In this document: one piece after another, positions 9,480 to 46,638 of the stretch
Position numbering within the stretch: position 1 is the first letter of the stretch
Layout: every line of letters begins with the position of its first letter
Position numbers and translations under genes: made by a program
Notes under the pieces: model-generated
The model's database searches: none
Seen by the model: the letters and a program-made list of their open reading frames with translations, nothing else
What the model was told of the DNA's origin: nothing
DNA from: Candidatus Niyogibacteria bacterium CG10_big_fil_rev_8_21_14_0_10_46_36
GTDB lineage: Bacteria > Patescibacteriota > Minisyncoccia > 1-14-0-10-42-19
Direction: 5' to 3'
DNA length: 64,000 nt
Assembly: GCA_002772995.1 (NCBI GenBank)
Contig: PFCO01000001.1
Span: 128,244-192,243 of the forward strand

Positions 9480-10847
9480 TTATCGCTTTTTTACTAATAA
9501 TTCTATTTCACGAGCGGCAACCGTCCCCGCGGAATATTCCGTTCCACGCGGCCATATGAACTGGGAAATAAATCTTTTTCTCTGTCGGTCATACGAATTT
9601 TTATGCTCCATAATATCTTCAATGACGCACAATAATTCGTCCTCATTCTTTGCGATAGGAGTTGCTTGGTGCGATAAAAGATTACGAAAATGCAAAGATG
9701 CATTTTGGGTTTCTTCGTATTGTTGCGGCATAAATGTAATCACGGGCTTGCCAAGCGCCATTGCGTCAAGCATAGCGCTTGTATTCACGCCAACAATAGC
9801 ATCCGCGAAAAAAACGCTGTCGGCAAACAAAGAAGCAGCGGCTTCTTTTTCCGGAAGTTGCGCGTCTTTCTGAAGCGTAACATTCGGCAAAGAAAGATGC
9901 TCGAATGGATGGATATTCGCTGGATGCGGGCGGATAATTATATGGGCATCCTGAAGCGCGCGTTTTTTTGATTGGCGAAGACGAGAAGCGATTTTTTTAA
10001 TGACCCATGATTCGTCACGCGCAATGTTTTTTGATGAACCAAGATACAATATGACCGGGCACTTGTTATTAAAACCATACCGTTGACAAAATGCCGCGCG
10101 GGATTCGGATGGCTTCCGCCGTACAAGCCATTGGTCAAAGAGTGGCGAGCCTGTAATACGTATACGCTCCTTGGGAACGGCGTGATGCGTTATTGCCTCC
10201 CGCATATGTTCTTCGTTCCACGCCAAAAGAAGGTCGGGAATAACGTGAATAAGCCCGCGCACCGTCAAATTATCCCAGGACATTACTGGAAGAACCGTGG
10301 GAATACCAAGCGCCCGCGCGGCTTTTAAAAACTCCGTATCGGCGCTTGAATTTCTCATGTTGCCCGGAGCGCCAATAACAACATCCGGCTTATAGTCCCT
10401 CAAAAATGCCGATATGCCGGCATCCGGCGGCACAAAATGTTCAGGAATGCGCAACAATGCGCCCGCCACACGCGTTTTAAAAAACGTATTGAGCAAAGAA
10501 TTTTTATTGCGTAAAAAATTCCTGATGTTTCTCGGTAACGCTTTTTCGATCCAATCTGTGCGCCAATGGTCTGCTTGCTCCGCGACCACAAGATATTTCC
10601 GATAACTTAGAAAGTCTCTCGCGGGAAATAAAATGCTCGTCCACCTGTCACTTCTGCTCGGAATGGTCGCGTAACTGCATAAAGGATTATTTTCCACATA
10701 GGCGGCCACAACATCAAACGATTCCGTTTTATTTTTTGCCGCATCAAAAAGAATATGCACGGCATGTCCCCGCGCGCATAACTCGTCTATAATACTCTTA
10801 TAGTAATGAAACAAAAGCGCCCACCGAACAACAAAGAGGACTTTCAT
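9480..10847 (-). CDS. GT-B-like surface carbohydrate biosynthesis protein, paralog 1 of 4 (possible TagF/CDP-alcohol phosphotransferase-like or KpsS-like family).
   Basis: It shares an S-W-D-N-L-T motif (MSWDNLTVRGL) and a C-terminal SD..h...S......a..KPVI motif with three other ORFs in the window. The start is moved from 10877 to the MKVLFVV ATG at 10847. Function is uncertain. Confidence 0.45.
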   Translation of the reverse strand: MKVLFVVRWALLFHYYKSIIDELCARGHAVHILFDAAKNKTESFDVVAAYVENNPLCSYATIPSRSDRWTSILFPARDFLSYRKYLVVAEQADHWRTDWIEKALPRNIRNFLRNKNSLLNTFFKTRVAGALLRIPEHFVPPDAGISAFLRDYKPDVVIGAPGNMRNSSADTEFLKAARALGIPTVLPVMSWDNLTVRGLIHVIPDLLLAWNEEHMREAITHHAVPKERIRITGSPLFDQWLVRRKPSESRAAFCQRYGFNNKCPVILYLGSSKNIARDESWVIKKIASRLRQSKKRALQDAHIIIRPHPANIHPFEHLSLPNVTLQKDAQLPEKEAAASLFADSVFFADAIVGVNTSAMLDAMALGKPVITFMPQQYEETQNASLHFRNLLSHQATPIAKNEDELLCVIEDIMEHKNSYDRQRKRFISQFIWPRGTEYSAGTVAAREIELLVKKR

Positions 10848-10851
10848 TGTT

Positions 10852-11847
10852 TTATTTTTCAGGATTGATAATGGCAAGACGCATCATAGCGAGCGTGGGA
10901 TTGCGTAAACCAAATACCGACCGCGTTTCGTGATGAAACTCATCAATACTATAAATGACAACATTATCATCCGGACGGTACGGGAAAAATAACGGATTAT
11001 TATGCGAAATGTCTCCATTTTTTTCACGTACGGCCAAAATATAATTAACGTTATAAAATACCGAATGCGCTTTCCCGGCACGATATATATGCTCAATATA
11101 TTTTCGGATATCGGACTGCCGCATCTCGCTAAACGACCAAAAATTAAAACTAGCGTCAAAAAATGAATCAGGAAGCATACCTGCCTGCTCCGGGGTCAAT
11201 AAATATACTGTACGCGTTGCATCAAAGTTTTTTATTTGGTGGGGGTAGACAATGTCCCAATCGGTGTATTTTATAAATTGGAAAGCGGCATGTCCCAACA
11301 TTTCCGGGAGGTCGACAATAACATATCTCTCTATTGGGAATTCTTTTATACAAAACAACGCAAATCCTCCCGCGCCCGCGCCAATCTCAAGCACAGAACG
11401 CATGCCATGAGGAAAGAGCTGTTGTTGCTTGCGCTTAAGGACTTTCATGTACCAAAAGTATCGCGCCTGCGACATTGCCGACTCAACATCAAACGACGCA
11501 AGAAAATCCTTATACTCCGGATACAGTCCCCTTCTCCACAAAAAATAAAGGGCTCGTGCGTGTTCGTGATAACCTTCTCCCAGCAACGAAAATTGCAATC
11601 GCGCCAACTTCGCGAATACTTTTAATGAAGCGAATCTCGCGTAATCCAAAAAAGAAATCTTGCCTTTTCTAAAACCAAACGAGTGCTTTTCTCGTCCTTC
11701 CACCCTCCTTTCCGCCAGCCGGACCCAATCTTTCTTTGTGGCGTCTATTTTATATCCTTCAATCTGATTGCCCCAAAAATTTGAAATGTTTTGGGATTTC
11801 GCCGATATAAGGAGAAATTCTTTTAGTTGCTCAAATCTATTATCCAT
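10852..11847 (-). CDS. Class I SAM-dependent methyltransferase (putative sugar O-methyltransferase).
   Basis: VLEIGAGAGGFALFCIKEFPIERYVIVDLPEM carries motif I (E/DxGxGxG) followed by an acidic residue at the end of beta-2. Confidence 0.55.
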   Translation of the reverse strand: MDNRFEQLKEFLLISAKSQNISNFWGNQIEGYKIDATKKDWVRLAERRVEGREKHSFGFRKGKISFLDYARFASLKVFAKLARLQFSLLGEGYHEHARALYFLWRRGLYPEYKDFLASFDVESAMSQARYFWYMKVLKRKQQQLFPHGMRSVLEIGAGAGGFALFCIKEFPIERYVIVDLPEMLGHAAFQFIKYTDWDIVYPHQIKNFDATRTVYLLTPEQAGMLPDSFFDASFNFWSFSEMRQSDIRKYIEHIYRAGKAHSVFYNVNYILAVREKNGDISHNNPLFFPYRPDDNVVIYSIDEFHHETRSVFGLRNPTLAMMRLAIINPEK

Positions 11848-11851
11848 ATCA

Positions 11852-12733
11852 TTAACTCAACCCGCCATCCCATATATATTGTCGTTTGAATGGCTGTCCT
11901 TTTATTTTTTTTAGAAAACGATTCCAATAAACCCTACCGCACCGAAATATAGAAAATCTTTGCGCATACTCTTTTATCCGATAACGCACATAAAAAGAAA
12001 ATGAACAATGTTCCCGTGCCGCCTCTAAGCGGTGTTGCGCGTGGCGTTTTGCGTGCTTCTGGGTGGTGCTTGCCTCATCAATGGTGTGCTCAAATAATCG
12101 TACGCGTAAAAATTTAACGACTCCGCCCCGCGCAATACTTTGCGCTATAAAAGCGATGTCTGCCGCCCAGCCAACAGGATGGAGCCCTATCTTTGCGAAT
12201 GAACTCCGTCGTACAATAGTTCCTGACCCGCACGCCTTATGGCGAAACGGGTCTTCGGGACGAGAACCGTAACGCACCCCCGGAGGAACATAAAAAGGGA
12301 TGGCGCGTCTCCCGTACCACGAAAACCCCCCGCACACCAATACATCAATGGCGGGGTTGCCGTCCATCACCGCTATTGCTTGCTCTAGGGCATTTTTGTT
12401 TATGACGCTATCTCCGGATAAAAGCAGTGTGTATTTCCCTTGAGCCAGCAAAACTCCTTTGTTCGTTGCGTGCGCCCCGCACACATCCTCCTCCGATAGA
12501 AAGATGTGTATGTCTTGGTGATGTTTTTTGATTACCTCCTTTGTATTGTCGTTGGACGCGCCGTCTATAACCAGTAATTCATCTGCGTCGGTTATGAATT
12601 CCTTGGCGCGCTGGATTGCATATTCAAGCTCAGATGCATTATTTTTCGTTATTAAAATGAACGACATCCGCTTGCGCGGGATGCTGTCAAATGTAAAAAA
12701 TGTGTTCATTTCTTGCTGCGTGCCGATACGCAT
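11852..12733 (-). CDS. Family 2 glycosyltransferase.
   Basis: MSFILITKNNASELEYAIQRAKEFITDADELLVIDGASNDNTKEV is a GT2 N-terminal signature. Confidence 0.75.
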   Translation of the reverse strand: MRIGTQQEMNTFFTFDSIPRKRMSFILITKNNASELEYAIQRAKEFITDADELLVIDGASNDNTKEVIKKHHQDIHIFLSEEDVCGAHATNKGVLLAQGKYTLLLSGDSVINKNALEQAIAVMDGNPAIDVLVCGGFSWYGRRAIPFYVPPGVRYGSRPEDPFRHKACGSGTIVRRSSFAKIGLHPVGWAADIAFIAQSIARGGVVKFLRVRLFEHTIDEASTTQKHAKRHAQHRLEAAREHCSFSFYVRYRIKEYAQRFSIFRCGRVYWNRFLKKIKGQPFKRQYIWDGGLS

Positions 12734-12777
12734 AATTCAGTATATATTTTATAATTTTGTCAAGCAAGATAAATAAA

Positions 12778-12802
12778 AACACACGAGGTCTCACCTCGTG
12801 TG
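12778..12802 (-). terminator. Intrinsic terminator downstream of the 12812..13762 gene.
   Basis: A 9-bp perfect stem ACACGAGGT/ACCTCGTGT with loop CTC, followed on the minus strand by TTTTTATTT. Confidence 0.55.
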
Positions 12803-12811
12803 TCAAATTGG

Positions 12812-13762
12812 TTATGCGGCATGATTTTTTTCATACCACTTTATTGTCTTTGCTATGCCTTCTTTCAGCGATATTGCGGGCTTCCAGCCGTATACGGATA
12901 CGCGCGACGTATCAAGAATGCGCATCGCATCCCCTGTCGGTTTTTCGGTATCCCACACTATGGTGGGTTTCTCGGGCAGGCACGAAATAATAACCTCAAC
13001 AAGCTCCCGTATTGAAACACCTACCCCGCTTCCGATATTTACCGGCTTGGTGATACCATGTTCCGCGACAAAAAGCATGCCGCGCGCAACATCATCCGCA
13101 TAAATAAAATCACGGACAGCGGAACCATCGCCCCATACAACAAAGGGGCCTTCGCCCGACATCGCGCGCGCGATCAAAGACGGTATTACCATGGCTGATT
13201 CGGGGTCAAAGGTGTCATGCGGCCCGTATACATTCGCGGGGCGCACTATTGATATTGCGTTCCACCCGTATTCTTTCCCATAGGCTTCTGCCTGTAATTC
13301 CCCCATGCGCTTTGCCCAGCCCGCAAACTTGTCGTGTTCTGACGGAAATGTATGCCATACGCTATCTTCCTGCATTACTGCAGATGGTGCGTATACGCCC
13401 ACCGTGCTCGTATACAGAAATCCGGACACGCCTTTAAGCCGCGCCGCTTCCATAAGATTCGTATTGAATTGAATATGCGATACAAACACGCGTGCGGGGT
13501 GCTCCTTCATAAACAACGGTGAGCCTTTTACGCAAAGAAGATTAAACACATAATCCATTTCTGCGCATACTTTCAGGCACGCTTCAAACGAACGAAGGTC
13601 CGTTTGAACGAATGCGGCATCAGAATGCGCGCGTGACGGATCATCAAGAGAAGCCACCGTAACATTCGCGCCTTTTTCTATCAGCATCCGCACAAGCGGT
13701 GTGCCGATAAGACCGGTACCGCCCGCAACTAATACGTTCTTGCCCGTAAAATCAAATTTCAT
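12812..13762 (-). CDS. NAD(P)-dependent epimerase/reductase (GDP-fucose synthase/UDP-glucuronate decarboxylase-like extended SDR).
   Basis: NVLVAGGTGLIGTPLVRMLIEKGANV together with NVYGPHDTFDPESAMVIPSLIARA and a YxxxK-type catalytic region. Confidence 0.7.
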   Translation of the reverse strand: MKFDFTGKNVLVAGGTGLIGTPLVRMLIEKGANVTVASLDDPSRAHSDAAFVQTDLRSFEACLKVCAEMDYVFNLLCVKGSPLFMKEHPARVFVSHIQFNTNLMEAARLKGVSGFLYTSTVGVYAPSAVMQEDSVWHTFPSEHDKFAGWAKRMGELQAEAYGKEYGWNAISIVRPANVYGPHDTFDPESAMVIPSLIARAMSGEGPFVVWGDGSAVRDFIYADDVARGMLFVAEHGITKPVNIGSGVGVSIRELVEVIISCLPEKPTIVWDTEKPTGDAMRILDTSRVSVYGWKPAISLKEGIAKTIKWYEKNHAA

Positions 13763-14601
13763 CGTCCTCTCCCCGGGCTTCGAAATATCTTTCCCAGACG
13801 GTCCTTTTCATTATGATCGTCAAAAAGCGGGAATACGCGAGGTCTTCGTAATGCAATGCGTCTTCGCTGTGCATTCTTGCCCTCTACAAAGTCAACACCC
13901 GGCGGAAGATATGTGATAAGCATCAAGGGCCTGTCTCTGTCGGAAATATTCGGGTACGAGCCGTGAACGGTGTTTCCGTGCAATATAAAGATAGAGCCCC
14001 GTTTCAAGCATACGAGCGTTTCCTCGTAATGTTCGGGGATCTGTACTTTATTTCCGACTGCTGCGCGCTCACGGAATGTCGGAGTCGGCTCCGCTTCAAG
14101 AAGCGGCTCGACATGCGAACCCGGATATACATACAATGCCCCGTTCTCTTTGTCCTGGTCGGTTAACGCGATACCAACGGTAATGTACTGCCCCCAACGA
14201 GCGCGAGGATACGTATTATCCTGATGCGGATTCCATGGTTGTTCCTGAAAAGAAGTCCCTGCCTTTTTGAAATTAAAGTGCGTATGCGTTACTTCTACCG
14301 GGGCGTCTGACAGCGTATCAACAACCGAAAGAATGCGTGGATCCTCCACCACGCCCATAATCCATTCTTCATACCAATGAAGATTCATAAGCGGAGAAAA
14401 ATTTTCATCCGCATACGATTCATATAGAGCGTTTATCGCATGGCATTCTCCTTTTGAGAACACCTGCTCTCTTGTGAGAAATCCTTTCTCTCGGTAAAAA
14501 CGAAGCTCGTCAATAGAAACAACTGTCCCGTGCTTTCGTGTATCCGGCATATAACCTCCTGTACTGATGTTAAAGAACATCACCAGTGTAGAAGAAAACA
14601 A
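13759..14601 (-). CDS. Phytanoyl-CoA dioxygenase (PhyH) family Fe(II)/2-oxoglutarate-dependent oxygenase.
   Basis: WNPHQDNTYP gives the HxD iron ligands, and ALYVYPGSH...TVHGSYPN gives the distal His and Arg/Ser region typical of PhyH-like enzymes. Length is 280 aa. Confidence 0.6.
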   Translation of the reverse strand: MFSSTLVMFFNISTGGYMPDTRKHGTVVSIDELRFYREKGFLTREQVFSKGECHAINALYESYADENFSPLMNLHWYEEWIMGVVEDPRILSVVDTLSDAPVEVTHTHFNFKKAGTSFQEQPWNPHQDNTYPRARWGQYITVGIALTDQDKENGALYVYPGSHVEPLLEAEPTPTFRERAAVGNKVQIPEHYEETLVCLKRGSIFILHGNTVHGSYPNISDRDRPLMLITYLPPGVDFVEGKNAQRRRIALRRPRVFPLFDDHNEKDRLGKIFRSPGRGR

Positions 14602-14610
14602 GGACTTGCG

Positions 14611-15276
14611 TCAATCAGCAAGAAAAGTCGACACTACGGGAAGTTCTTTTATATCTCCAAACGAAGCAACAATAGTGTCAGCCTCTAAAAGCGTTTCTTT
14701 GGGCAAAGTTGACGCAATAGCAATACAATACGCACCTGCTCTTTTTGCCGCCCGTATTCCGAACGGGGCGTTTTCTACGACAATGCATTCATGAGGAGCA
14801 ACACCGATAGCGCCCGCTCCTGCAAGATACGGGTCCGGCTCCGGCTTCCCGCGCTCATACATATCGCTTGTGATTATTGCTTTAAATTGCGACAAAAAAT
14901 CATTAGGCACCGACGACTCCAGTCGTTTCATCAGTCCCGCCGTTACAATACCCGTAGGAATTTGCTTTGTGGCGCAAAGCTTTATAAAATCCTCAACATG
15001 CGGATACAATAAGAACGAATGGTCATCCATATAGTAGCGCTCCTTTGCGTGCATGATGTCTTCCGCGCGCGTTTCAGGAATGCCGTTTTTGTCGCAAAAA
15101 AATACAGCTACATCAATTGGCCGCATGCCCTCCAGAGGAAAATATTCTTCTCCGGTTATCTGCCCACCCGCGTCACCGAATGCCTTTTGCCATGCACGCA
15201 AATTGTCTTCCATAGTGCGCGCAAGCACCCCGTCAAAATCAAAAAGGATTCCTTTGTATGGCGCACTGTTATTCAT
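14611..15276 (-). CDS. HAD-superfamily hydrolase (beta-phosphoglucomutase family).
   Basis: GILFDFDGVLARTMEDNLRAWQKAF (DxDGV). Length is 221 aa. Confidence 0.7.
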   Translation of the reverse strand: MNNSAPYKGILFDFDGVLARTMEDNLRAWQKAFGDAGGQITGEEYFPLEGMRPIDVAVFFCDKNGIPETRAEDIMHAKERYYMDDHSFLLYPHVEDFIKLCATKQIPTGIVTAGLMKRLESSVPNDFLSQFKAIITSDMYERGKPEPDPYLAGAGAIGVAPHECIVVENAPFGIRAAKRAGAYCIAIASTLPKETLLEADTIVASFGDIKELPVVSTFLAD

Positions 15277-15778
15277 TAAAAAATGCGAGAGTTGCCTTCA
15301 TCCACGGACCCAAATGCTTGTAATGCGCGGATGTCACTATCTTATCATCAACCACGGCGGGCTCATCAATATATGTAGCCCCGGCGTTTTCAATGTCATC
15401 CTTGATGCTATAGTATCCTGATATTTTTTTGCCTTTTACTATTTTCGCGGATATCAACAACTGCGCCGCGTGACAAATGCTTGCGATCACTTTCCCACGC
15501 CCATGAAATTCCGCAATAAAATCAATTACCTCTTTATCTTGACGCAAATACTCCATGCATTTTGCTCCTCCAGGCAATACTAAGAGGTCATAATCATCTG
15601 GATTGATACCTGCAATGTCGCGTGTAGGGACAATCTTTGTGCCTAATATCCCCTGTACTGTTTCATTGCCGCGGATGGCCACATCAACATTGAACCCCGC
15701 CTCCTGCAAACGATAATACGGATAGATGAATTCGTGGTCCTGAACATTCTTTCCTGTAATAATAAGAGCTTTTTTCAT
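15269..15778 (-). CDS. DJ-1/PfpI family protein (class I glutamine amidotransferase-like).
   Basis: LLVLPGGAKCMEYLRQDKEVIDFIAEFHGRGKVIASICHAAQLL carries the nucleophile elbow C-H. Confidence 0.7.
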   Translation of the reverse strand: MKKALIITGKNVQDHEFIYPYYRLQEAGFNVDVAIRGNETVQGILGTKIVPTRDIAGINPDDYDLLVLPGGAKCMEYLRQDKEVIDFIAEFHGRGKVIASICHAAQLLISAKIVKGKKISGYYSIKDDIENAGATYIDEPAVVDDKIVTSAHYKHLGPWMKATLAFFNE

Positions 15779-15784
15779 ATCGCG

Positions 15785-16540: not shown

Positions 16541-16579
16541 ATACCATTCATACTACAAAAAAAGGTGATAAAATCAAGA

Positions 16580-16620
16580 AAAAACCGCACCGGATACCCG
16601 GTGCGGTTCTGTTTATTTTT
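16580..16620 (-). terminator. Bidirectional intrinsic terminator.
   Basis: Stem AACCGCACCGG / CCGGTGCGGTT with loop ATAC at 16586-16611. It is flanked by an A-run on one side and TTTATTTTTTT on the other. Confidence 0.6.
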
Positions 16621-20197: not shown

Positions 20198-20321
20198 TAC
20201 AGTTCTCCTTTGTATTTTTAAGGTAAATCACTGCCTATTGTACACAAAAATATGCAAAAAACAACTTTCTTTTGCGGTCAAATAAACGGCTCACACCCCC
20301 GTGTTAGCCGTTTAGCGGAAC

Positions 20322-20352: not shown

Positions 20353-20355
20353 GCA

Positions 20356-33768: not shown

Positions 33769-33771
33769 AAA

Positions 33772-35145: not shown

Positions 35146-35157
35146 AAGCGTTTTTTA

Positions 35158-37577: not shown

Positions 37578-37579
37578 AT

Positions 37580-38926: not shown

Positions 38927-39039
38927 ACGAAGATAATGCTTTACAATAAACCATTTTTGGCGTTTTTGTCAAAATTGACGGATTAGCAAATTTGTATAAA
39001 AATAATAATACAAAACCTCTGTTATTGTAACGAAATTGC

Positions 39040-40773
39040 ATGAATAAACGCATACAATCTATCCTTCTCCACCCCCACCATACGATCAAAGATGCAATGA
39101 AAAAAATGGAGGAAGGAAAAAAAATCGGACCCTCAGCCCCCTGGGGTATTTGTCTTATTGTCGACGAAAAAAAGAAGCTCAAAGGCGTAGTGACTGACGG
39201 TGATATACGCCAGGCATTGCTCGCCGGACACACGCTCTCCACGCCAGTCTCGTCCATCATGACCAAAAATCCCCTTACCGTAAAAAGCGCGTCTCTTCCG
39301 AAAGATATGCTTATAGACCTTCACCACGAATTTAAAAATAGGAACGCAACAGAAAACAAATATCATCAAATAGTTATCGTGCATGAAAATGGCGCCGTTG
39401 AAGACGTGGTAACACCGTTTGAATTATGGCGACGGAGTGAACTCAAAACAAAAAATGTCGCCATCATAGGGCTTGGGTATGTCGGCCTCACTCTCGGGCT
39501 TAGTTTTGCGGATCTCGGCATTAAGGTGTTTGGTATTGATACAAGCGCGCATGTTGTAAAGCAATTAACAAAAGGGGTTCCTCATTTTTATGAGAAAGGC
39601 CTTGATGCGCTCCTCAAAAAACACATCAATAAGAATCTGTTTGTTAAAAAAACGCTCTCAAAAAATGAAAGCGACATCTATATTATTTGCGTTGGAACTG
39701 CAACTGATGAAAAAAATAATATGATATCGTCATACATTAAAAACGCGGCTCACGCAGTGGGGAAAGCGCTCAAAGCCCACGACCTGATTGTTCTCCGTTC
39801 AACCGTTGTCGTAGGAACGACGCGCGATATTGTGGTCCCCATTCTTGAAAAAGAATCGGGATTAAAAGCGGGACGCGATTTTTTCATCGCGTTCGCTCCG
39901 GAACGCACCGCCCAAGGAAAAGCACTTGAAGAACTTCGTACACTTCCGCAAGTCATTGGCGGGCTCAACAAACAAAGCCTTGATTATACCGCTCAACTCT
40001 TCCAACCTCTTACAAATACCATTATCAGCGTATCCAGTATGGAAGCGGCAGAAACGGTAAAGCTGCTTAATAACACATTCCGCGATATCAGCTTCTCGTT
40101 CTCAAATGAAGTAGCGCAGATATGCGACCGCATGAACTTGAACACGATGGAAATTATCCGTGCAGCAAATGAGGGCTACCCCCGGAACCCAATTCCTTAC
40201 CCAAGCCCCGGAGTGGGAGGCTCATGCCTGGTCAAAGACCCGTACATTTTTGCAGAATCAGCAAAAAAAGTGAACTACAAAGCCCAGCTTCCGCTCGTCT
40301 CCAGAGCGATAAATCAACATATGGTTGATTTTGTCCACGAGAAAGTGCACGCGTTCTGCAAGCGAAATAAAAAATCTGCGAAACATGCAAAAATATTTAT
40401 TGTGGGAATGGCATTTAAAGGAAGCCCGGAAACATCCGACATCCGTAACTCCACCGCGGTAGATATTACAAAAAAGCTTCAGCGTACATATAAAAATATT
40501 GTAGCGTATGATCCGGTGGCAACATCATACGACCTAAAAAAACTGGGAATAAAAATAGCACCCTCCCTTGCCGCAGGATTTAAAAATGCGGATTGTGTTC
40601 TTTTGCTTAATAATCACCACTCATATAAAAATATAGATATCCATAAAGCGACGCAGGCAATGAACACACCAAGCCTTCTTTTAGACGGCTGGAGTGTATT
40701 TGCGCCGCAGGATTTTGCCCACTTTGACCATATTACCTACGATGGCTTGGGAGTGGGACAACTGCCGCAGTAA
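39040..40773 (+). CDS. Fusion of a tandem CBS-domain N-terminus with a UDP-glucose/GDP-mannose/UDP-ManNAc dehydrogenase family nucleotide-sugar dehydrogenase.
   Basis: Residues 1-150 read IKDAMKKM...GVVTDGDIRQAL...SIMTKNPLTV..., a CBS pair. Then VAIIGLGYVGLTLGLSFADLGIKVFGID gives the NAD-binding motif, and the catalytic region GGSCLVKD matches GGxCxxKD of UGDH. Length is 577 aa. Confidence 0.8.
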   Translation: MNKRIQSILLHPHHTIKDAMKKMEEGKKIGPSAPWGICLIVDEKKKLKGVVTDGDIRQALLAGHTLSTPVSSIMTKNPLTVKSASLPKDMLIDLHHEFKNRNATENKYHQIVIVHENGAVEDVVTPFELWRRSELKTKNVAIIGLGYVGLTLGLSFADLGIKVFGIDTSAHVVKQLTKGVPHFYEKGLDALLKKHINKNLFVKKTLSKNESDIYIICVGTATDEKNNMISSYIKNAAHAVGKALKAHDLIVLRSTVVVGTTRDIVVPILEKESGLKAGRDFFIAFAPERTAQGKALEELRTLPQVIGGLNKQSLDYTAQLFQPLTNTIISVSSMEAAETVKLLNNTFRDISFSFSNEVAQICDRMNLNTMEIIRAANEGYPRNPIPYPSPGVGGSCLVKDPYIFAESAKKVNYKAQLPLVSRAINQHMVDFVHEKVHAFCKRNKKSAKHAKIFIVGMAFKGSPETSDIRNSTAVDITKKLQRTYKNIVAYDPVATSYDLKKLGIKIAPSLAAGFKNADCVLLLNNHHSYKNIDIHKATQAMNTPSLLLDGWSVFAPQDFAHFDHITYDGLGVGQLPQ

Positions 40774-40779
40774 TAATAT

Positions 40780-41916
40780 ATGGCGCCTCATTCATACATC
40801 ATCACCAACTTTGCATATGGCACGGGCCCTTATGTGCGCACCACGGAACTCGCACTCGCGGTAAACGACGAACTGGAGCGCCTTGGGCATCCGCGTTCTT
40901 CTATTGTCGTCCCCCTTATCTATGGAGAAAAACAAAAACGCATTATGCAGGAAGAGTTTTCTTTGCTCTTTGCCAAGCACCCAAAAGAGATAATTCTTGA
41001 TGAAACATTCGGCTCGCATCTCAAAAAAACTTTTTATATCGGCACCGATACATACGAAACGCATCTAAACGCGTGGGCAAAAAATGCTGAAGACGCATCA
41101 AAAAAGCTAGAGAAACACATACAAGATACATACGGCAACCGTATTGCAATGATTTTGCAACGCTCCCCAAGGGTCCGTATCAATATCGCTCCCTCGTACT
41201 TTGCCTCATTCGGTTACCTGTCAGATATTTATGAGCGCTCCATAGATAATACCGATATAGCAATACGCAAAGAAACGCTTCTTCATGCCGCCGAATATGC
41301 GTCCTCCATTGAAAAAGAGCACTTGATGCACATTATCTCAACGCCCGGAACATTTTCATGGAAACACTATTCAAAAAAATACGCTGACGAAATTCTTTCT
41401 CCCCCATTGATATCGCCTTATACACATACCGAAGCGCCCGTTGAAAAAGGCATATTCGTGAATGTTACAGGCATCCCAGGCCTTGCAGGACTCTACAAGG
41501 CTGCGTTAGAGATGGAGACCCACATCTATACGAATGACACAACGACGCTCCCCCAAGGAACAAAAACTCCGTCTTCCGTTATGTTTAGCGGGAACATACT
41601 ATTCCAATTTGCGCGCACGGGCTGGAGCTCGGTATGGCTCTCCCACCTTTCCGGCACCCCGTTGGTGTATCCGCAATGGAAACACACAGACGATCCCGAA
41701 ATATACTTTAATAATATATGCGTCAAAACATTGGGGTTGGGAATCCCATACGAAGGCCAGCATATCGATTCCCTTATTAAAACTACTGAAACGCTTCGTG
41801 CTACAATAAAATCGTACAACGCAAAGATTTTGGACACATTCGGAACAACAAACGGCACACACTATGCTGCAAAAAAAATAGCGGAACATTTTGCAAAAAA
41901 TCACTTATCACTATGA
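40780..41916 (+). CDS. Hypothetical protein, possibly a divergent GT-B fold glycosyltransferase/2-epimerase-like.
   Basis: The 378-aa protein has an N-terminal IITNFAYGTGPYVRTTELALAV and a C-terminal ARTGWSSVWLSHLSGTPLVYP arrangement, reminiscent of GT-B nucleotide-binding halves. No definitive motif was found. Confidence 0.3.
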   Translation: MAPHSYIITNFAYGTGPYVRTTELALAVNDELERLGHPRSSIVVPLIYGEKQKRIMQEEFSLLFAKHPKEIILDETFGSHLKKTFYIGTDTYETHLNAWAKNAEDASKKLEKHIQDTYGNRIAMILQRSPRVRINIAPSYFASFGYLSDIYERSIDNTDIAIRKETLLHAAEYASSIEKEHLMHIISTPGTFSWKHYSKKYADEILSPPLISPYTHTEAPVEKGIFVNVTGIPGLAGLYKAALEMETHIYTNDTTTLPQGTKTPSSVMFSGNILFQFARTGWSSVWLSHLSGTPLVYPQWKHTDDPEIYFNNICVKTLGLGIPYEGQHIDSLIKTTETLRATIKSYNAKILDTFGTTNGTHYAAKKIAEHFAKNHLSL

Positions 41917-42629
41917 GAAAAAAGAAATACGCCATTCTCGCCGTAATCCCGGCCCGAGGTGGATCAAAATCCATACCCCGGAAAAACATAAAACCCCTTG
42001 CGGGAAAACCATTACTCACCTATTCCATAACGGAAGCGCTGAAAAGCAAATTACTTACAAGAGTAGTTGTTTCCTCTGAGGATAAGCGCATCATCCGCAC
42101 AGCAAAGAGATACGGAGCTGAAGCGCCATTTGTCCGCCCAAAAGCACTCGCAACAGACACCGCCCTTGCCGTGCCTACCATCCAGCATGCTGTACGAGAA
42201 ATGGAACGCCAAGAAAACACAACATACGATTATGTTGTTATGCTTCAGCCGACCACTCCGCTTCGCACCACCCGCCATATTGATGCTTGTCTCCTGCAGC
42301 TCATCCGCACGAAAGCTGATTCGGTCATAAGCGTTGTCCGCGTATGGGACAAGCACCCCTACCGCATGAAAACAATAAAGCGCGGGCGGCTCGTAGACTT
42401 TGGGAAAGAAACAAAAGAGAATATGCCCCGCCAAAGCCTTCCTCCGGTGTACTTGAGAAACGGGGCGATATACGCATGCAAAAGAAATGTACTGATGCGG
42501 CAAAACAGTTTTAAGGGAAAAGATTCCCGCCCCTACATCATGACAGAAGAAGAGTCGGTGAATATAGATAGCGTTTTAGATTTTCAGATTGCCGAACTTC
42601 TGATAAAAAATCGACGAAGCAAGCGTTAA
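41913..42629 (+). CDS. Second CMP-sugar cytidylyltransferase (NeuA/KdsB family).
   Basis: AVIPARGGSKSIPRKNIKPLAGKPLLTYSI. Length is 238 aa. It shares the KNIKPLAGKPL core with the 32432..33163 gene. Confidence 0.8.
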   Translation: MRKKKYAILAVIPARGGSKSIPRKNIKPLAGKPLLTYSITEALKSKLLTRVVVSSEDKRIIRTAKRYGAEAPFVRPKALATDTALAVPTIQHAVREMERQENTTYDYVVMLQPTTPLRTTRHIDACLLQLIRTKADSVISVVRVWDKHPYRMKTIKRGRLVDFGKETKENMPRQSLPPVYLRNGAIYACKRNVLMRQNSFKGKDSRPYIMTEEESVNIDSVLDFQIAELLIKNRRSKR

Positions 42630-43408
42630 AATATTTCTTTCCCGAACAGCGTAAGCACCTTTCGCAATATAGAAAATATACGGCTCTCATAACGATATGT
42701 GTACTCCGGAATAACATCCCCCCCGAATGATTGTTTGAATTGAGCAATCCCCTTTTTTGCGTTTTGAGAAAAATTAATCCCTCCCAAATCAATCGTCGTG
42801 TATCCTTTTTCTTTGCCGTACATACATATCTCCCACACAAGACGGCGGGTAGCATACCCAATGATGCGCGGATCCATGTCTTCGTCTTTGCGCAAAGACG
42901 CTATCGTCTTGAAACGCAGAATGCCATCAGCACGATACGAAGCAATGGATACAATCATTTTTCCCTTCCAATAGGCATTTGACAGCAGGCATTGGCTAAA
43001 CTCCCGTTTAAGGGAAAGAAGCGCGCCATCAACAGTCTTTGCGTGAGCATACACGGCATATGACTCGCGGCGGTTGGTGTCATCTACCCTAAATGTGAGT
43101 TCCGGAATGTGCTCGCTTTTCCGTATCTCATTGCGCGTATTTTTTTTGAACCGGGCAAGAATAGCATCGGGGGCATCTGTAAGCGGAATGACTGCTGTAT
43201 GCTTTTCGGTACGCGTACAGCCTCGGGGTGCTGCGCATTTTACATACGAAACAAGATATATGTAGTGATGTTTCTTTTGCAGAGACGCGAGCTCACCCGC
43301 AGTAACCGTATGCATCACAGTACGGATATACGGGAGACCACAAAGAGAAAAGTGAGGCAATAATTCTAGGAGCCTTTGTTTATGCTGTTGCTCGTCTATT
43401 TGTTGCAT
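42626..43408 (-). CDS. FemAB-like / GNAT-fold acyl(aminoacyl)transferase (Acetyltransf_6-type).
   Basis: The 260-aa protein has the C-terminal region GYTTIDLGGINFSQNAKKGIAQFKQSFGG, resembling FemAB/BioF2-like acetyltransferase domains. Family-level call only. Confidence 0.4.
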   Translation of the reverse strand: MQQIDEQQHKQRLLELLPHFSLCGLPYIRTVMHTVTAGELASLQKKHHYIYLVSYVKCAAPRGCTRTEKHTAVIPLTDAPDAILARFKKNTRNEIRKSEHIPELTFRVDDTNRRESYAVYAHAKTVDGALLSLKREFSQCLLSNAYWKGKMIVSIASYRADGILRFKTIASLRKDEDMDPRIIGYATRRLVWEICMYGKEKGYTTIDLGGINFSQNAKKGIAQFKQSFGGDVIPEYTYRYESRIFSILRKVLTLFGKEIF

Positions 43409-44061
43409 GCAATAACGTAATGAAAATCGCGCGTTTTGAATAAATAGGTATCGTAGTGCCCTATCTTAATATCGGAAAACTGCCCATATATGTTTCGTAT
43501 CTCGTCTTCGCTATCAAAACAATACAAAATAGCGTCTTGTTGCGAAGGTGTGCGCGAAGGCCGGTATAAAGACGGGGCTATCTCTTCTGCGCATAAATTA
43601 TGCTTTGTAGATACCATGGATGATAAAAATTGCCCGCCCGATTTCAATACGCGAAACACCTCGGCAAGCGACTCGGTGAGCGTTTCGCGTGAGTTGTAAT
43701 ACAATGACTGCCATGCAACCACCACATCAAATGTATTGTCATCAAACGGGAGTCTGGGAGAATCAACCCGTTTAAACTCCGCATTAAACCCAGATTTTGC
43801 CAGAAGCTCTTTTGCGTGCGCGATCCGGTTTTCCGCAAGTTCAACGCCAGAACACATAAACCCCTCCTTTGCAAAATGTAAAAGATCCTGACCTTCGCCA
43901 AACCCAATAGAAAGAAGTTTTTTGCCCTTACCGTCAGGAAATAAAGCTTTTTGCGCCTTTATGAGATGTATGTCCGGATGCATGCCATGTATGGCCATAT
44001 GTTCCCATGTTTCGGCATTTCGCTTATAAATATTTTTTTCTGAAAATGACATACTAGGCAT
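43396..44061 (-). CDS. Class I SAM-dependent methyltransferase.
   Basis: KKLLSIGFGEGQDLLHFAKEGFMCSGVELAENRIAHAKE is motif I plus an acidic beta-2 end. FDVVVAWQSLYY is motif II/III. Confidence 0.65.
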   Translation of the reverse strand: MPSMSFSEKNIYKRNAETWEHMAIHGMHPDIHLIKAQKALFPDGKGKKLLSIGFGEGQDLLHFAKEGFMCSGVELAENRIAHAKELLAKSGFNAEFKRVDSPRLPFDDNTFDVVVAWQSLYYNSRETLTESLAEVFRVLKSGGQFLSSMVSTKHNLCAEEIAPSLYRPSRTPSQQDAILYCFDSEDEIRNIYGQFSDIKIGHYDTYLFKTRDFHYVIACNK

Positions 44062-45424
44062 TCTGAAGAATAAAATTGGCTAATCGTTCTGATGACCTTC
44101 CGTCTATCTTGTAACACATCTTGTCCACGAGATCCTTGCGAAGCTCTCTATCCTGCCCCGGGTCATCCAGATATGCCCTTATCTGCGCGAATAACTCGGG
44201 GAATGATTTAATCACCTTTACACTCCCTGTATCAAGCACATGGCGAAAATGCGCAAGATCTTCCCAACGCCTTACAGACTGGTGATACGGCCGTTTTTTA
44301 TACCCGTCAAATCCTATTGTAAGCACAGGCTTATCAAATATTGCCGCCTCTATTGCAGTCGTTGAAAAAAGGGAAATAACTACGTCTGCGTGGTACATCA
44401 TATTCACATAGTGCAAAAAATTATCCATGCTATTTGTATTGTCTATCCAATTTATGAAAACATTCTGATCTTGCTCGAATTGCAGATACTTTGCCTTTTC
44501 GCTTGTTTGCGGATACGGACGCAGCAATAGCCGCACAGAAGGTCCAAAAAAACCTTTCGATATCTGGTTGGAGATTGCTTGCAAAATATCCGGCTCGTCA
44601 GCCGCATATACGCTTCCCGATACAAAAAGGATGACTTTGCTGTCTCCCGGCATGCCCATCTTCTTTAAGAATTCATCTCGCTGTATTACATGGCGCTCAA
44701 TACCGTAATAATTATCCCATTGCGGAAAGCCAACCACATCAACCTCCGAAGACTTGTACCCCTCATATTTGACTGCTTCTTTTTTCATTGGCTCGTTCTG
44801 CACCGCAAGAACATCCGTTTGCACGGGTACAAAATATTTATTGAAATGGTCCCACTTTGAAGGCATCCCCGCTGTTTTTATATTCCGGCGTTTTGCTTCG
44901 GCCGCTATTTCTATATCGGGGAAATGCGCGATATCAGAGCAAAACACAAGATCAGGATTATGCGTATCAAATAATGCTTTATACGGTCGCTCAGTAAAAA
45001 TCTTTTGATAGAGCCACGGAACTACATTCCGTTTTATTATGTTAAATTTTCCAAAGGTATGCGCTATAACCCATTTTATAACCCATAAGTGTCTGTTCCC
45101 TCCGGCGGGAGGCGCATCCAGCCGGTCGCCAACAGTAGCAAGCAATTTCGTAGTGCCAGTAAATACCAGATATGAATAGAAAAAATGAAACGCGCGCTCA
45201 AGCCGCGTTTTGGGACGAAAATAAGATATATTCTCTATCACTACATGCGGCATATTTTTTAATTCTTCCGCAGAAAAAAATTCGGGCAATACTTGAGAGC
45301 GCCGCAGTATGACAATATTATGGTCTCCACGCAAAACAAGTTTCCGGACAACACTGTCCGGAGGCAAAAAAAGGTTTCGGAATACGTGCACATCGTACAC
45401 ACTGAAAAAAATTGTTTTTTTCAT
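44054..45424 (-). CDS. GT-B-like surface carbohydrate biosynthesis protein, paralog 4 of 4.
   Basis: PSKWDHFNKYFVP is the degenerate form of the shared motif. The C-terminus reads ADVVISLFSTTAIEAAIFDKPVLTIGFDGY. The start is moved to the MKKTIFF ATG (45424) so that it overlaps the GT4 gene by ATGA. Confidence 0.4.
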   Translation of the reverse strand: MKKTIFFSVYDVHVFRNLFLPPDSVVRKLVLRGDHNIVILRRSQVLPEFFSAEELKNMPHVVIENISYFRPKTRLERAFHFFYSYLVFTGTTKLLATVGDRLDAPPAGGNRHLWVIKWVIAHTFGKFNIIKRNVVPWLYQKIFTERPYKALFDTHNPDLVFCSDIAHFPDIEIAAEAKRRNIKTAGMPSKWDHFNKYFVPVQTDVLAVQNEPMKKEAVKYEGYKSSEVDVVGFPQWDNYYGIERHVIQRDEFLKKMGMPGDSKVILFVSGSVYAADEPDILQAISNQISKGFFGPSVRLLLRPYPQTSEKAKYLQFEQDQNVFINWIDNTNSMDNFLHYVNMMYHADVVISLFSTTAIEAAIFDKPVLTIGFDGYKKRPYHQSVRRWEDLAHFRHVLDTGSVKVIKSFPELFAQIRAYLDDPGQDRELRKDLVDKMCYKIDGRSSERLANFILQNA

Positions 45425-46638
45425 ACGCTCGCTTTTACAAAAAGACGTATGAGGGCATCGGCGGTTTGCGCCCAAGAAAGCTTTTTCTCAACAAACGACC
45501 TGCCGTTTTTTCGGAGAGTATTGTATAGCTGTGAATCAGAAACCAGTATCTCTATGCTTTTCGCCAAAGCTCCGACGTCTTTTGCACTAAATAAAACAGC
45601 ATTTTCCTTGTCTGTCAATACTTCTGATGCCCCTGCGGTATCCGAAACAATAACGGGCATCCCACAAGACATTGCCTCAAACACCGCCAGCCCCCAACTT
45701 TGCATGTGATTCGGAAACAGGAAAAGATGATGCTTATGGTATTCTGCCAAAAAATCTTCTTCGGATATCTCTCCCGTAAAACGCACACGCTTCTGCAGAC
45801 CTAAGCGAGCAACAAGACTTACGAGCGATGCATAATATTTTTCATTGCTTTTTGTGCTTCCGGAAATAGTGAGCGTCGCATTGTATCCCCTCTGCACTAA
45901 GAGACCGAGTGCAGATATGCCGTCCTCGAAACGCCGGTGCGGAAAAAATATGCCGTTCATAAAAAGTGACACCGTTTCTTTTGTAGGCGGGATGCGCTCT
46001 TGGTATGAAAAATAATTAGCATCAACGCCGTTCCGGATTATCGTTGCGTTTTTCCCAAAATATTTTTTTGCCCATTTCTTATCGCGCTCATCCAGCACGG
46101 CAATCTCGTTCTGCGCCTTAATAAACTTATGAGCATCATAGGCATCATATACCCGGTAAAACGCGCGCTTTACAAGAGATACGCGGAGTTGCGAATCTAA
46201 TTTTTGTGCGCGGAGCATCATAAATTGTTTTGTCGGCATGTCATGCATCACCCATACGGAAGGCACATTTTTTGAGCGCTCCTTAAAATAGTACGCAACA
46301 CGGTAACATACATGGTCATGCGGGTTCAGTATGTCTGTATCCTTATCAATAAGGTCAGCGAGTTCTTTTGATGCGTCGTTCTCACGGAACATCTGCCCGA
46401 ACGAGCGGAATATATTGACTATGCTCCACGCGCTCCGATGCTTGTACGTAGGGAAAAAATCCAACGAACGCACATCCATGCCCTCAAGCAAATCCGCAAA
46501 GCAATCTTCCTTTGAATAGAGAAAGGTGTAGAGCACCACTTCGTGCCCTGCTTTTTTGAGCTCCCGCGCAACATATAAGACATGACGCTGGACACCTCCG
46601 CGTGTATTCAATTTTCGCACTATCATAGCTACCTTCAT
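45421..46638 (-). CDS. Family 4 (GT-B) glycosyltransferase.
   Basis: The N-terminus MKVAMIVRKLNTRGGVQRHVLYVARELKKAGHEV together with the C-terminal E(x7)E-like FEAMSCGMPVIVSDTAGASEVL is the GT4 signature. Confidence 0.75.
   Translation of the reverse strand: MKVAMIVRKLNTRGGVQRHVLYVARELKKAGHEVVLYTFLYSKEDCFADLLEGMDVRSLDFFPTYKHRSAWSIVNIFRSFGQMFRENDASKELADLIDKDTDILNPHDHVCYRVAYYFKERSKNVPSVWVMHDMPTKQFMMLRAQKLDSQLRVSLVKRAFYRVYDAYDAHKFIKAQNEIAVLDERDKKWAKKYFGKNATIIRNGVDANYFSYQERIPPTKETVSLFMNGIFFPHRRFEDGISALGLLVQRGYNATLTISGSTKSNEKYYASLVSLVARLGLQKRVRFTGEISEEDFLAEYHKHHLFLFPNHMQSWGLAVFEAMSCGMPVIVSDTAGASEVLTDKENAVLFSAKDVGALAKSIEILVSDSQLYNTLRKNGRSFVEKKLSWAQTADALIRLFVKASV

Follow-up and report, generated by a model that had tools for sequence, protein, structure and literature searches.

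Four transferase paralogs in a surface-glycan island

A stretch of 64,000 nucleotides (here, the window) of contig PFCO01000001.1 from "Candidatus Niyogibacteria" bacterium CG10_big_fil_rev_8_21_14_0_10_46_36 (positions 128,244 to 192,243 of the forward strand), an ultrasmall groundwater bacterium of the Patescibacteria, or candidate phyla radiation (CPR; Parcubacteria group), carries a large island of surface-glycan biosynthesis genes. Four genes in this island, named P1 to P4 here, encode diverged members of a single transferase family, and the ancestry, candidate active site, and likely donor substrate of these proteins are analyzed below. Lengths are given in amino acids (aa).

303..46638, both strands: surface-glycan biosynthesis island containing P1 to P4, delimited by gene content and continuing past the left end of the window
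9480..10847, minus strand: P1, TagF-like GT-B transferase paralog, 455 aa; the open reading frame (ORF) extends to a TTG at 10877
33772..35145, minus strand: P2, TagF-like GT-B transferase paralog, 457 aa
37580..38926, minus strand: P3, TagF-like GT-B transferase paralog, 448 aa
44054..45424, minus strand: P4, TagF-like GT-B transferase paralog, 456 aa

The initial annotation had placed four ORFs of 448 to 473 aa at these sites. All four exist on the minus strand, with boundaries that match the public gene calls, and lengths of 448 to 457 aa are borne out; the value of 473 aa and the end at 45475 belong to a TTG-extended P4 ORF and do not stand. Both in the public calls and in a 100% identical "Candidatus Niyogibacteria" protein at NCBI, P4 starts with the ATG at 45424, and this start shares a 4-nucleotide overlap with the stop of a gene for a family 4 glycosyltransferase (GT4). 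P3, too, has a 100% identical counterpart in "Candidatus Niyogibacteria". Each paralog adjoins a modifying enzyme, as had been noted: P1 lies beside a NanM-like O-methyltransferase and a C-methyltransferase, P2 beside a Methyltransf_24 protein, P3 beside a polysaccharide deacetylase, and P4 beside a methyltransferase and the GT4.

All six pairings of the paralogs are significant in BLASTP (E = 3.5e-11 to 3.6e-41, with 20 to 26% identity over 290 to 467 columns) and collinear, P1 being the most divergent among the four.

P2-P4: E = 3.6e-41, 467 columns
P2-P3: E = 6.3e-22
P3-P4: E = 8.6e-22
P1-P2: E = 2.6e-16
P1-P3: E = 3.5e-13
P1-P4: E = 3.5e-11

The motifs by which the four had been grouped are all present, although the C-terminal ones had been listed out of ORF order. 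The central motif reads MSWDNLT in P1, RSWDNLT in P2, FSWDNLT in P3, and SKWDHFN in P4, and the C-terminal motif reads ADAIVGVNTSAMLDAMALGKPVI in P1, SDVVSCGPSSIALDGVFFDKPVV in P2, ADVNVNHRSTVTIECCIFHTPVV in P3, and ADVVISLFSTTAIEAAIFDKPVL in P4. A MAFFT alignment sets the shared motifs in common columns, namely the central S/K-W-D-N/H, the KxVIL block, (H/Y)-P, and a C-terminal (A/S)D...S(S/T)...(E/D)...(K/T)PV, and they are thus collinear.

P1, P3, and P4, which were searched directly, have orthologs of their own elsewhere at about 40 to 58% identity, as against 20 to 26% between paralogs; P2-type ORFs were recognized in most of the related loci. Judged from these sequences, P1 to P4 are old, anciently diverged paralogs. 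The difference between ortholog and paralog identity makes distinct specificities plausible, in line with the earlier suggestion that four copies imply distinct linkages or substrates.

No fifth copy is present in the window: a family hidden Markov model (HMM) run over its six-frame translation matches only P1 to P4, even at E ≤ 10. An ORF of 464 aa at 35158-36552 is similar in length but encodes a multi-pass membrane protein, and two window proteins of 378 and 331 aa that have no family match show no similarity to P1 to P4. No transmembrane segment is predicted in any of the four paralogs, which would accordingly be soluble or peripheral-membrane proteins of the cytoplasm. P4 has an aromatic, amphipathic insertion in its N-terminal domain (N-domain), FFYSYLVFT, whose sequence does not vary within the P4 clade and which would suit peripheral binding to the membrane.

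Fold and superfamily

P1 to P4 are a divergent clade of the TagF/TagB superfamily and have the GT-B fold. Pfam family PF04464 (Glyphos_transf, the TagF/TagB CDP-glycerol glycerophosphotransferases; CDP, cytidine diphosphate), with a gathering threshold of 22.1 bits, matches P1 with 45.2 bits (E = 8.1e-12), P2 with 37.1 bits (E = 2.4e-9), and P4 with 44.9 bits (E = 1e-11). P3, at 21.8 bits, falls 0.3 bits under the threshold, and many P3 orthologs carry PF04464. An uncharacterized glycosyltransferase family had been one of the initial options, but the family is not an unrecognized one: homologs already bear the NCBI name "CDP-glycerol glycerophosphotransferase family protein."

The proposed GT-B fold was recovered in AlphaFold2 models of P3 (predicted local distance difference test [pLDDT] score, 89.1; predicted template modeling [pTM] score, 0.87) and P4 (pLDDT, 92.8; pTM, 0.91), each of which consists of two Rossmann-like domains. 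Foldseek matches of both models in the PDB are all GT-B proteins, including UDP-sugar 2-epimerases (UDP, uridine diphosphate), MshA, and WaaG; TagF (3l7j_B) is matched with an E value of 5.6e-9 and a template modeling (TM) score of 0.51 to 0.55. Because the TM scores are about 0.5 to 0.57 on the query, no solved structure is closely related to P3 or P4.

A KxVILYAPTWRDDE-like block had been likened to TagF-type enzymes, and the alignments agree: KxVIL is placed on TarL KxVILFAPTFRG by both HMMER and hhalign. A 52-sequence profile reaches the TarL structure 8va1 in hmmsearch (E = 1.3e-5) over the C-terminal domain (C-domain) only, and hhalign comparisons with TarL give probabilities of 95.7% (E = 9e-9) and 97.1% (E = 4.8e-11), in alignments that start at the G-x-P-x-x-D block and remain collinear up to the C terminus. 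In sequence searches of the PDB, a profile built from the four paralogs gave nothing significant (the best matches were 2-epimerases, at E of about 0.5), and neither P1 alone nor the Bacillus and Priestia homologs described below gave a match.

Membership in GT107 or GT99 (KpsC/WbbB), one of the initial suggestions, was not upheld, since there is no match to Capsule_synth or related Pfam families and no such protein among the top 50 Foldseek hits; neither sequence nor fold supports a GT107, GT99, or KpsS identity. Likewise, GT38, GT42, GT52, GT80, GT30, and GT107-type families gave no Pfam match at E ≤ 1 and are absent from the top 50 Foldseek PDB hits, and relatedness of P1 to P4 to GT118 or GT140 found no support.

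How widely the family is spread, a question raised with its first description, was addressed by searching 1.84 billion cluster representatives with a profile built from P1 to P4. The profile matched 10,753 clusters (at 50% identity) at E ≤ 1e-3 and 2,603 at E ≤ 1e-30.

Conserved residues and a candidate active site

The central and (H/Y)-P motifs lie at the following positions, all on the minus strand.

10269..10280: S-W-D-N of P1 (aa 190 to 193), with the invariant Trp-Asp, candidate general base
34576..34587: S-W-D-N of P2 (aa 187 to 190), placed by the family alignments
38399..38410: S-W-D-N of P3 (aa 173 to 176), placed in the AlphaFold model
44846..44860: S-K-W-D-H of P4 (aa 189 to 193), with W191, D192, and H193 invariant in the P4 clade
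9921..9932: R-P-H-P of P1, HP motif, sharing family-alignment columns with those motifs of P3 and P4 that are set on TarL K-M-H-P
34213..34224: K-P-Y-P of P2, with Tyr instead of the second conserved His
38060..38071: R-V-H-P of P3, HP motif, set residue for residue on TarL K-M-H-P by hhalign
44510..44521: R-P-Y-P of P4, with R302 and Y304 invariant in the P4 clade and the Tyr set on the TarL His

The Trp-Asp pair is invariant both in the 52-sequence alignment and in a 13-sequence cross-clade alignment. In the P3 model, it starts a helix immediately after the N-domain strand of residues 167 to 172, and the loop after that strand is the usual site of the base in GT-B enzymes. Of the two conserved His residues of the TagF family, the first (TagF H444; TarL W-H300) has no conserved counterpart in the P1-P4 family alignments. 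In an hhalign comparison with a Bacillus group that has Q-H-G, the family position aligned with it is variable and precedes the invariant Asp by 3 residues. The 8va1 chain as deposited has Asn in place of this His, and an "H444N variant" is among the TagF entries. The second, which we take to be H584 of TagF, is His in P1 and P3 and Tyr in P2 and P4, the Tyr being invariant across the P4 clade.

Direct hhalign comparison with TarL leaves the N-domain register ambiguous and sets the TarL W-H on the helix before strand 5, whereas topology and the bridging Bacillus alignment assign the first His to the loop that follows strand 5, with the Asp 3 residues further on. From these alignments we hypothesize a His-to-Asp switch in the P1-P4 family. 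The Asp of the invariant Trp-Asp, opening the helix that follows the fifth N-domain strand, would face the cleft between the domains and deprotonate the acceptor hydroxyl, and the (H/Y)-P motif, together with a conserved Arg 2 residues earlier and the C-domain S-T...E/D motif, would hold the phosphate and ribose of cytidine monophosphate (CMP).

Gene context points to CMP-nonulosonic acids as likely donors

Gene context and remote homology suggest that P1 to P4 are transferases of CMP-activated nonulosonic acids (NulOs), i.e., of sialic-acid-like sugars. We regard the case for this assignment as evenly balanced overall, and it is firmer for P2 and P3 than for P1 and P4. The island contains three genes of NulO synthesis and activation, a context that, like the Patescibacteria origin, went unnoticed in the initial annotation.

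1037..2110, minus strand: NeuB-family nonulosonic acid synthase (PF03102, E = 1.1e-78, plus SAF domain)
32432..33163, plus strand: CMP-sugar synthetase A, PseF-like, CTP_transf_3 (PF02348; TIGR03584 PseF, E = 3.8e-34)
41913..42629, plus strand: CMP-sugar synthetase B, PseF-like, between P3 and P4 (TIGR03584 PseF, E = 3.4e-49)

The NeuB-family synthase scores 320 bits with TIGR03569 (NeuB_NnaB) and 254 bits with the PseI model, both under the respective cutoffs. Synthetases A and B are 38.6% identical and are candidates for the donor supply of the paralogs; A lies 608 bp from P2, with one methyltransferase gene in between.

Among curated families, NF046086 (the BFO_1060 family) is the best match for all four paralogs, with E values from 1.8e-7 to 1.6e-18 (1.2e-16 for P1 and 1.6e-18 for P3). 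Two stretches are matched in each paralog, the best of which spans the central W-D region in P1 and P3. In Tannerella forsythia, its members Tanf_01245 and TFUB4_00887, which carry a TagB domain, are needed for the addition of terminal pseudaminic acid (Pse) or legionaminic acid (Leg) (PMC5420450).

Related loci were collected in a P3-clade scan with one genome per species, which yielded 46 loci, all from Patescibacteria save for one 1.7-kb contig binned as archaeal, and in a P4-clade metagenome scan, which yielded 80 loci. For these 126 loci, the analysis covered the DNA out to about 10 kb from each homolog. A NeuB and/or CMP-synthetase gene is present in 32 of the 46 P3-centered loci, and in 20 of the 25 that have full 10-kb flanks; in 12 P3-centered loci, no more than 300 bp separate such a gene from a paralog. 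The two functions are also joined in a single polypeptide. P0154, a protein of 692 aa that is 41% identical to P3, has a CTP_transf_3 CMP-sugar synthetase domain (E = 5.8e-27 to Pfam and 3e-46 to the window synthetase) C-terminal to its P3-like transferase part, and its gene adjoins a NeuC-like Epimerase_2 gene.

More distant homologs are found in similar company. A homolog on a Rhizobium plasmid (E = 3.4e-24), in which the motifs read GSWDQ and RCHP, is encoded directly after genes for a NeuB-family synthase, NeuC, and acylneuraminate cytidylyltransferase; a Bacillus cereus plasmid homolog adjoins pseC/G/H/I, and a Priestia plasmid homolog adjoins pseC. In hhalign, the match to the pse-linked Bacillus group (98.9%, E = 1.8e-17) is stronger than that to canonical TarL. 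P1, P3, and P4 also match TIGR04396, "surface carbohydrate biosynthesis protein" (E = 2.3e-9, 4e-7, and 8.6e-4, respectively), a member of which directly follows neuABC in Herbaspirillum seropedicae AU14040 (PMC6679464).

The plasmid of Rhizobium sp. WL3 (NZ_CP042825.1) also encodes, upstream of the NeuB-family gene (523-6372 of locus L012), four consecutive hypothetical proteins of 449 to 513 aa with HP-type and GT-B C-terminal motifs (e.g., SIHPKT, VKEHPWQ, SLHPRQ, and NVHPKA). Together with the downstream W-D member, they form a second, independent set of multiple HP-motif transferase paralogs in a NulO/Kdo (3-deoxy-D-manno-oct-2-ulosonic acid) locus.

We propose that P1 to P4, like every characterized relative, would take a donor activated by a cytidine nucleotide and release CMP from it, and that the likeliest donors are CMP-NulOs made by the NeuB and the two PseF-like synthetases of the island. 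Each paralog would form a different NulO linkage or serve a different acceptor. The four would elongate a lipid-linked surface glycan, on shared intermediates of which the adjacent methyltransferases, the deacetylase, and the GT4 would act, and the Wzx-like flippase of the island would then export it. P4, coupled to the GT4 and a flippase, and P1, whose clade occurs in ABC-transporter polysaccharide loci of other phyla, may use a different donor.

Recurring gene orders and fusions

Two to four paralogs recur in the 126 related loci, with a median of three in the 46 P3-centered ones. A recurring order is Wzx, P3, methyltransferase, P2, P2, methyltransferase, NeuB, and CMP synthetase; P2-type genes, usually two per locus, are the commonest partner in this arrangement of P3, P2, NeuB, and CMP synthetase. 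The order GT4, P4, Wzx recurs among the metagenome loci: of the 80, 22 have a GT4 gene as the upstream neighbor of P4 and 26 have a Wzx-like gene as the downstream neighbor.

Many profile-matched proteins have two or three tandem modules, and others are fused to GT4, GT2, or methyltransferase domains homologous to neighbor genes of the window. P0383 combines a GT4 (E = 1.9e-110 to the window GT4) and a P4-like module in one polypeptide, and GT2 and O-methyltransferase domains occur as fusion partners of P1-type modules. Such fusions indicate that the window encodes, as separate genes, an assembly line whose parts are linked elsewhere into single polypeptides. P1-clade homologs are also found in metagenome-assembled genomes (MAGs) of Deltaproteobacteria, Dehalococcoidia, Acidobacteriota, and Planctomycetota.

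Alternative donors and functions

Several observations weigh against CMP-NulOs as the donors of all four paralogs. The functional evidence on the P1-P4 clade consists entirely of context and remote homology. SpsB of Bacillus subtilis has a TagB domain and is encoded next to the genes for legionaminic acid, but Leg transfer does not require it (PMC7439481); adjacency to NulO genes can therefore mislead. Moreover, small genomes pack glycan genes together, so that some co-occurrence is expected for any glycan enzyme. NulO genes are present in only 5 of the 12 P4-centered loci with full flanks, and the two P1-clade loci examined from other phyla encode Wzm/Wzt transporters together with methyltransferases, while NulO genes are absent within 10 kb. 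P1 to P4 score 60.9, 30.7, 67.0, and 61.1 bits, respectively, with NF046086, whose cutoff is 200, and are thus related to that family but not members of it. The sialyltransferase D/E-D/E-G motif is missing, as no [DE][DE]G occurs in any of the four, and, with the TarL N-domain register ambiguous, the catalytic role of the Asp is a proposal. Finally, the window has one NeuB and two synthetases for four transferases, and its three classical glycosyltransferases face several other activated sugars, including GDP-heptose (GDP, guanosine diphosphate), so that some paralogs may transfer something else.

In a P1-clade locus (L061) of a Deltaproteobacteria MAG (JACRCN010000026.1), a 371-aa fusion of a weak CTP_transf_like (TagD-type) domain with a methyltransferase is encoded at 16281-17396, about 5 kb from the P1-clade gene in a Wzm/Wzt polysaccharide locus. 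This fusion may point to a different cytidine-activated donor for P1-type enzymes.

What else could the four proteins transfer? Some or all of them, P1 and P4 especially, might be ordinary GT-B glycosyltransferases with noncytidine donors, such as GDP-heptose or dTDP-/UDP-deoxy-amino sugars (dTDP, deoxythymidine diphosphate), which we consider somewhat unlikely; on this view they would provide transferases missing from the island. The island makes GDP-heptose and several modified 6-deoxy and amino sugars, with only two GT2 enzymes, one GT4, and no GT9 heptosyltransferase at hand, although GT9 genes are present in related loci; the best structural matches (2-epimerases, MshA, and WaaG) use UDP-sugars; P4 is coupled or fused to GT4, and the P1-type fusions involve GT2 and O-methyltransferase domains. 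The P1-clade loci of other phyla and the 5 of 12 P4-centered loci mentioned above fit the same idea. On the other hand, every sequence-level relative with a known or suspected function (TagF, TarL, and BFO_1060) uses a cytidine nucleotide, the part conserved with TarL is the nucleotide-binding half, and there is no significant match to GT1, GT4, GT9, or GT28 (Glyco_trans_1_4, E = 0.13, and Glyco_trans_4_4, E = 0.006, are both below the threshold). Among cytidine-activated donors, CDP-glycerol or CDP-ribitol would make P1 to P4 true teichoic-acid-type transferases (TagB-, TagF-, TarF-, or TarL-like) that build an anionic polymer from glycerol phosphate or ribitol phosphate. PF04464 is the sole Pfam family over threshold, the NCBIfam models of TarF, TarB, and TarL give weak C-terminal matches, the TarL matches of the 52-sequence profile and of hhalign are as reported above, P1 and P3 keep the HP motif, the PGAP (Prokaryotic Genome Annotation Pipeline) label of homologs names this activity, and the Patescibacteria envelope is thought to be of the Gram-positive type. 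Nevertheless, we think this quite unlikely. Canonical TarL is encoded beside a TarI-type gene and TarJ, and a Streptomyces family member, too, directly adjoins a TarI-type gene, whereas phmmer found no TagD, TarI, or TarJ in the 64-kb window or in the 126 related loci (about 10 kb around the homologs; the probes were Staphylococcus epidermidis TarI and TarJ and an approximate TagD sequence, and such genes may lie elsewhere in those genomes). Besides, the similarity to TarL is mainly limited to the nucleotide-binding C-domain, the first family His position is variable, the second is Tyr in P2 and P4, and the synthetase fused to the transferase is of the CTP_transf_3 CMP-sugar type rather than of the TagD or IspD type. 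The initial annotation had offered either polyol- or sugar-phosphate transferases or a glycosyltransferase family; the homology to TagF that underlay the former is real, but the polyol option is the weaker of the two, with no CDP-polyol genes nearby.

A different reaction altogether would follow if one paralog were a hydrolyzing UDP-sugar 2-epimerase or hydrolase (of the NeuC, LegG, or PseG type) that the NulO pathway needs. The top Foldseek matches of P4 are UDP-GlcNAc or UDP-diNAcGlcA 2-epimerases, including NeuC; Pfam Epimerase_2 (PF02350) gives subthreshold matches to P1 (E = 0.012) and P4 (E = 0.0034); and no Epimerase_2 gene was found in the window. However, the Epimerase_2 scores (14.9 bits for P1 and 16.7 for P4) are far under the gathering threshold of 30.6 bits, and the structural likeness is at the generic GT-B level (TM of 0.5 to 0.57 on the query). 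In related loci (L011 and the neuC of Rhizobium), a separate Epimerase_2 gene stands beside the paralogs, and in the window the missing step is better ascribed, as a candidate, to the gene for a 378-aa protein next to CMP synthetase B. The fusions to GT4, GT2, and methyltransferases and the tandem-module proteins fit polymerizing transferases instead, and we regard a 2-epimerase among P1 to P4 as very improbable.

Other genes of the island

With a length of at least 46 kb, the island takes up about 10% of the 459-kb contig, and at about 46.7 kb it gives way to housekeeping genes (proline dehydrogenase, aldehyde dehydrogenase, and tRNA synthetases). It encodes the GDP-glycero-manno-heptose pathway (GmhA, HddA, and a fusion of GmhB with the nucleotidyltransferase HddC), many epimerases and dehydratases of the short-chain dehydrogenase/reductase type, a DegT aminotransferase, a thiamine pyrophosphate (TPP)-dependent E1 pair, AsnB, at least eight methyltransferases, two sulfotransferase-like proteins, a polysaccharide deacetylase, and a nucleotide-sugar dehydrogenase. 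Its classical glycosyltransferases are two GT2 enzymes and one GT4, with no GT9. Four genes close to the paralogs are singled out here.

35158..36552, minus strand: 464-aa multi-pass membrane protein with 70 hydrophobic 19-residue windows, between P2 and the deacetylase/P3 pair
36549..37577, minus strand: polysaccharide deacetylase (PF01522), directly downstream of P3
40780..41916, plus strand: 378-aa protein unmatched in Pfam and NCBIfam, immediately upstream of CMP synthetase B
45421..46638, minus strand: GT4 glycosyltransferase (Pfam Glycos_transf_1/Glyco_transf_4), translationally coupled to P4

The 464-aa membrane protein, which has no family match in Pfam or NCBIfam, is probably a Wzx-type flippase: in many loci, its homologs adjoin P3 or P4, and in one locus (L009), a weak Polysacc_synt match is given by the gene at the equivalent position. 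A deacetylase homolog is present in 17 of the 46 P3-centered loci. The 378-aa protein is encoded beside, or one gene from, a CMP-synthetase gene in five related loci (L031, L033, L048, L098, and L122) and possibly catalyzes the NeuC/PseG-type step (sugar-nucleotide hydrolase or epimerase) of the NulO pathway.

Between a sulfotransferase-like gene and a CMP-sugar synthetase gene, a 371-aa pyruvate kinase (31290-32405, minus strand) consists of the barrel domain only (PF00224, E = 3.6e-62), without the C-terminal regulatory domain; it may supply phosphoenolpyruvate to NeuB or have another role. The genes at 23498-24379 and 30464-31300 (both minus strand) encode paralogous Sulfotransfer_2/galactose-3-O-sulfotransferase-like proteins (38% identical, E = 9e-56). 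The nucleotide-sugar dehydrogenase (39040-40773, plus strand) resembles UDP-ManNAc dehydrogenase (E = 6e-114) and has an extra N-terminal region of about 130 aa that resembles CBS/KpsF C-terminal domains. The TPP-dependent E1 alpha/beta pair (16613-18471, minus strand; E1_dh and Transket_pyr) lies amid sugar-modifying genes and near genes for a PhyH-like dioxygenase, a DJ-1/PfpI protein, and a cupin, which suggests that a branched-chain or otherwise unusual sugar is made. The part of the island that is lowest in GC (0.40 to 0.42 at 24 to 28 kb) has, on the opposite strand, a gene for a Laminin_G_3/concanavalin-A-like lectin-fold protein (24540-25781, plus strand); this gene may be a later insertion or may encode a secreted protein that binds or carries the glycan.

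Outside the island, the gene at 58769-62251 (minus strand) encodes a 1,160-aa class I IleRS-like tRNA synthetase, the catalytic domain of which is split by a complete histidine-phosphatase insert at residues 491 to 663 (His_Phos_1, PF00300, E = 6e-39).

Implications

To our knowledge, few transferases are known for bacterial NulOs (pseudaminic and legionaminic acids and their relatives). The candidates with a TagB domain rest on genetics in one organism, and our search of the accessible literature for links of Patescibacteria/CPR with nonulosonic acids or glycerophosphotransferases found nothing relevant. Probably, a large W-D clade of the TagF superfamily has been repurposed for NulO transfer and expanded to multiparalog sets in CPR, and most of its members are annotated as "hypothetical" or, probably wrongly, as glycerophosphotransferases. 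If the NulO assignment is true, the clade would be a new source of NulO transferases with several linkage specificities, and a systematic annotation error would be corrected; at least 46 kb would then be devoted by CPR bacteria to a sialic-acid-like, methylated glycan, which bears on host attachment and on evasion of hosts and phages. If it is false, P1 to P4 are an ordinary TagF-family paralog set in a polysaccharide locus.

A wider proposal, which we put forward tentatively and with more doubt than confidence, is that CPR and scattered other phyla carry a large TagF-derived glycosyltransferase family in which the His gave way to the invariant Trp-Asp and the donor changed from CDP-polyol to CMP-NulO, and in which two to four paralogs or tandem fusions build a heavily methylated, anionic oligo- or poly-NulO surface polymer. 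Such a polymer would be a sialic-acid-like functional analogue of teichoic acid for ultrasmall episymbionts, and the proposal would imply a new NulO transferase family at the CAZy level and a first sign of NulO-rich CPR cell surfaces. The family assignment itself is routine; the NulO-rich, methylated CPR polymer is the part worth testing.

Comparison with known systems

The T. forsythia enzymes of the BFO_1060 family (NF046086), which transfer pseudaminic or legionaminic acid derivatives in general O-glycosylation, resemble P1 to P4 in length (about 445 aa), in having no transmembrane segment, in the TagB/GT-B domain and HP motif, and in adjoining CMP-NulO biosynthesis genes; the likeness in sequence was established with the NF046086 HMM. 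They differ in that the D/E-D/E-G motif reported for them (PMC5420450) is absent from P1 to P4, of which only P1 and P3 have HP, and in that one transferase per locus in Bacteroidota stands against four paralogs in Patescibacteria.

Known PF04464 enzymes use CDP-glycerol or CDP-ribitol. With TagF, TagB, TarF, and TarL (3L7I-3L7M and 8VA1), P1 to P4 share, in collinear order, G-x-P-x-x-D, KxVILFA, (H)P, and D...SS/ST...E...KP, as well as the C-terminal helix ending in DG-x-S-x-(E)R and CMP as the presumed leaving group. Unlike these enzymes, they have the invariant W-D about 3 residues downstream of the first His position and no conserved His there, no N-terminal membrane-targeting or extra domain, and no CDP-glycerol or CDP-ribitol genes nearby, and the similarity outside the C-domain is weak. 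The TagB-type GT-B proteins of the B. cereus and Priestia plasmids and B. subtilis SpsB (about 420 to 540 aa) are likewise encoded beside NulO genes; the Bacillus plasmid proteins, unlike the P1-P4 family, retain the Q-H-G His and K-P-H-P, and SpsB is likened here by its description only. TIGR04396 is more remote, with scores of 19 to 37 bits against a cutoff of 125.

Inverting GT-B sialyltransferases (GT80 PmST1, GT52 NST/Lst, and GT38 polysialyltransferase) are described, in part by PMC5420450, as using a CMP-NulO donor, an Asp/Glu base in the N-domain, and an HP His or hydrogen-bond donor on the CMP phosphate. We propose a resemblance in mechanism to these enzymes and not membership, given that P1 to P4 have no match to their Pfam families at E ≤ 1 and lack D/E-D/E-G. 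KpsC (GT107), WbbB (GT99), KpsS1 (GT118, for Pse), and KrkA (GT140) use CMP-Kdo or CMP-Pse donors and have a modified GT-B fold; in these retaining ulosonic-acid transferases an Asp is the key catalytic residue, and KpsC carries tandem modules in one polypeptide (PMC12887879). Their relationship to P1 to P4 is undetectable in sequence, but the type of donor proposed here, the tandem modules, and the Asp are alike.

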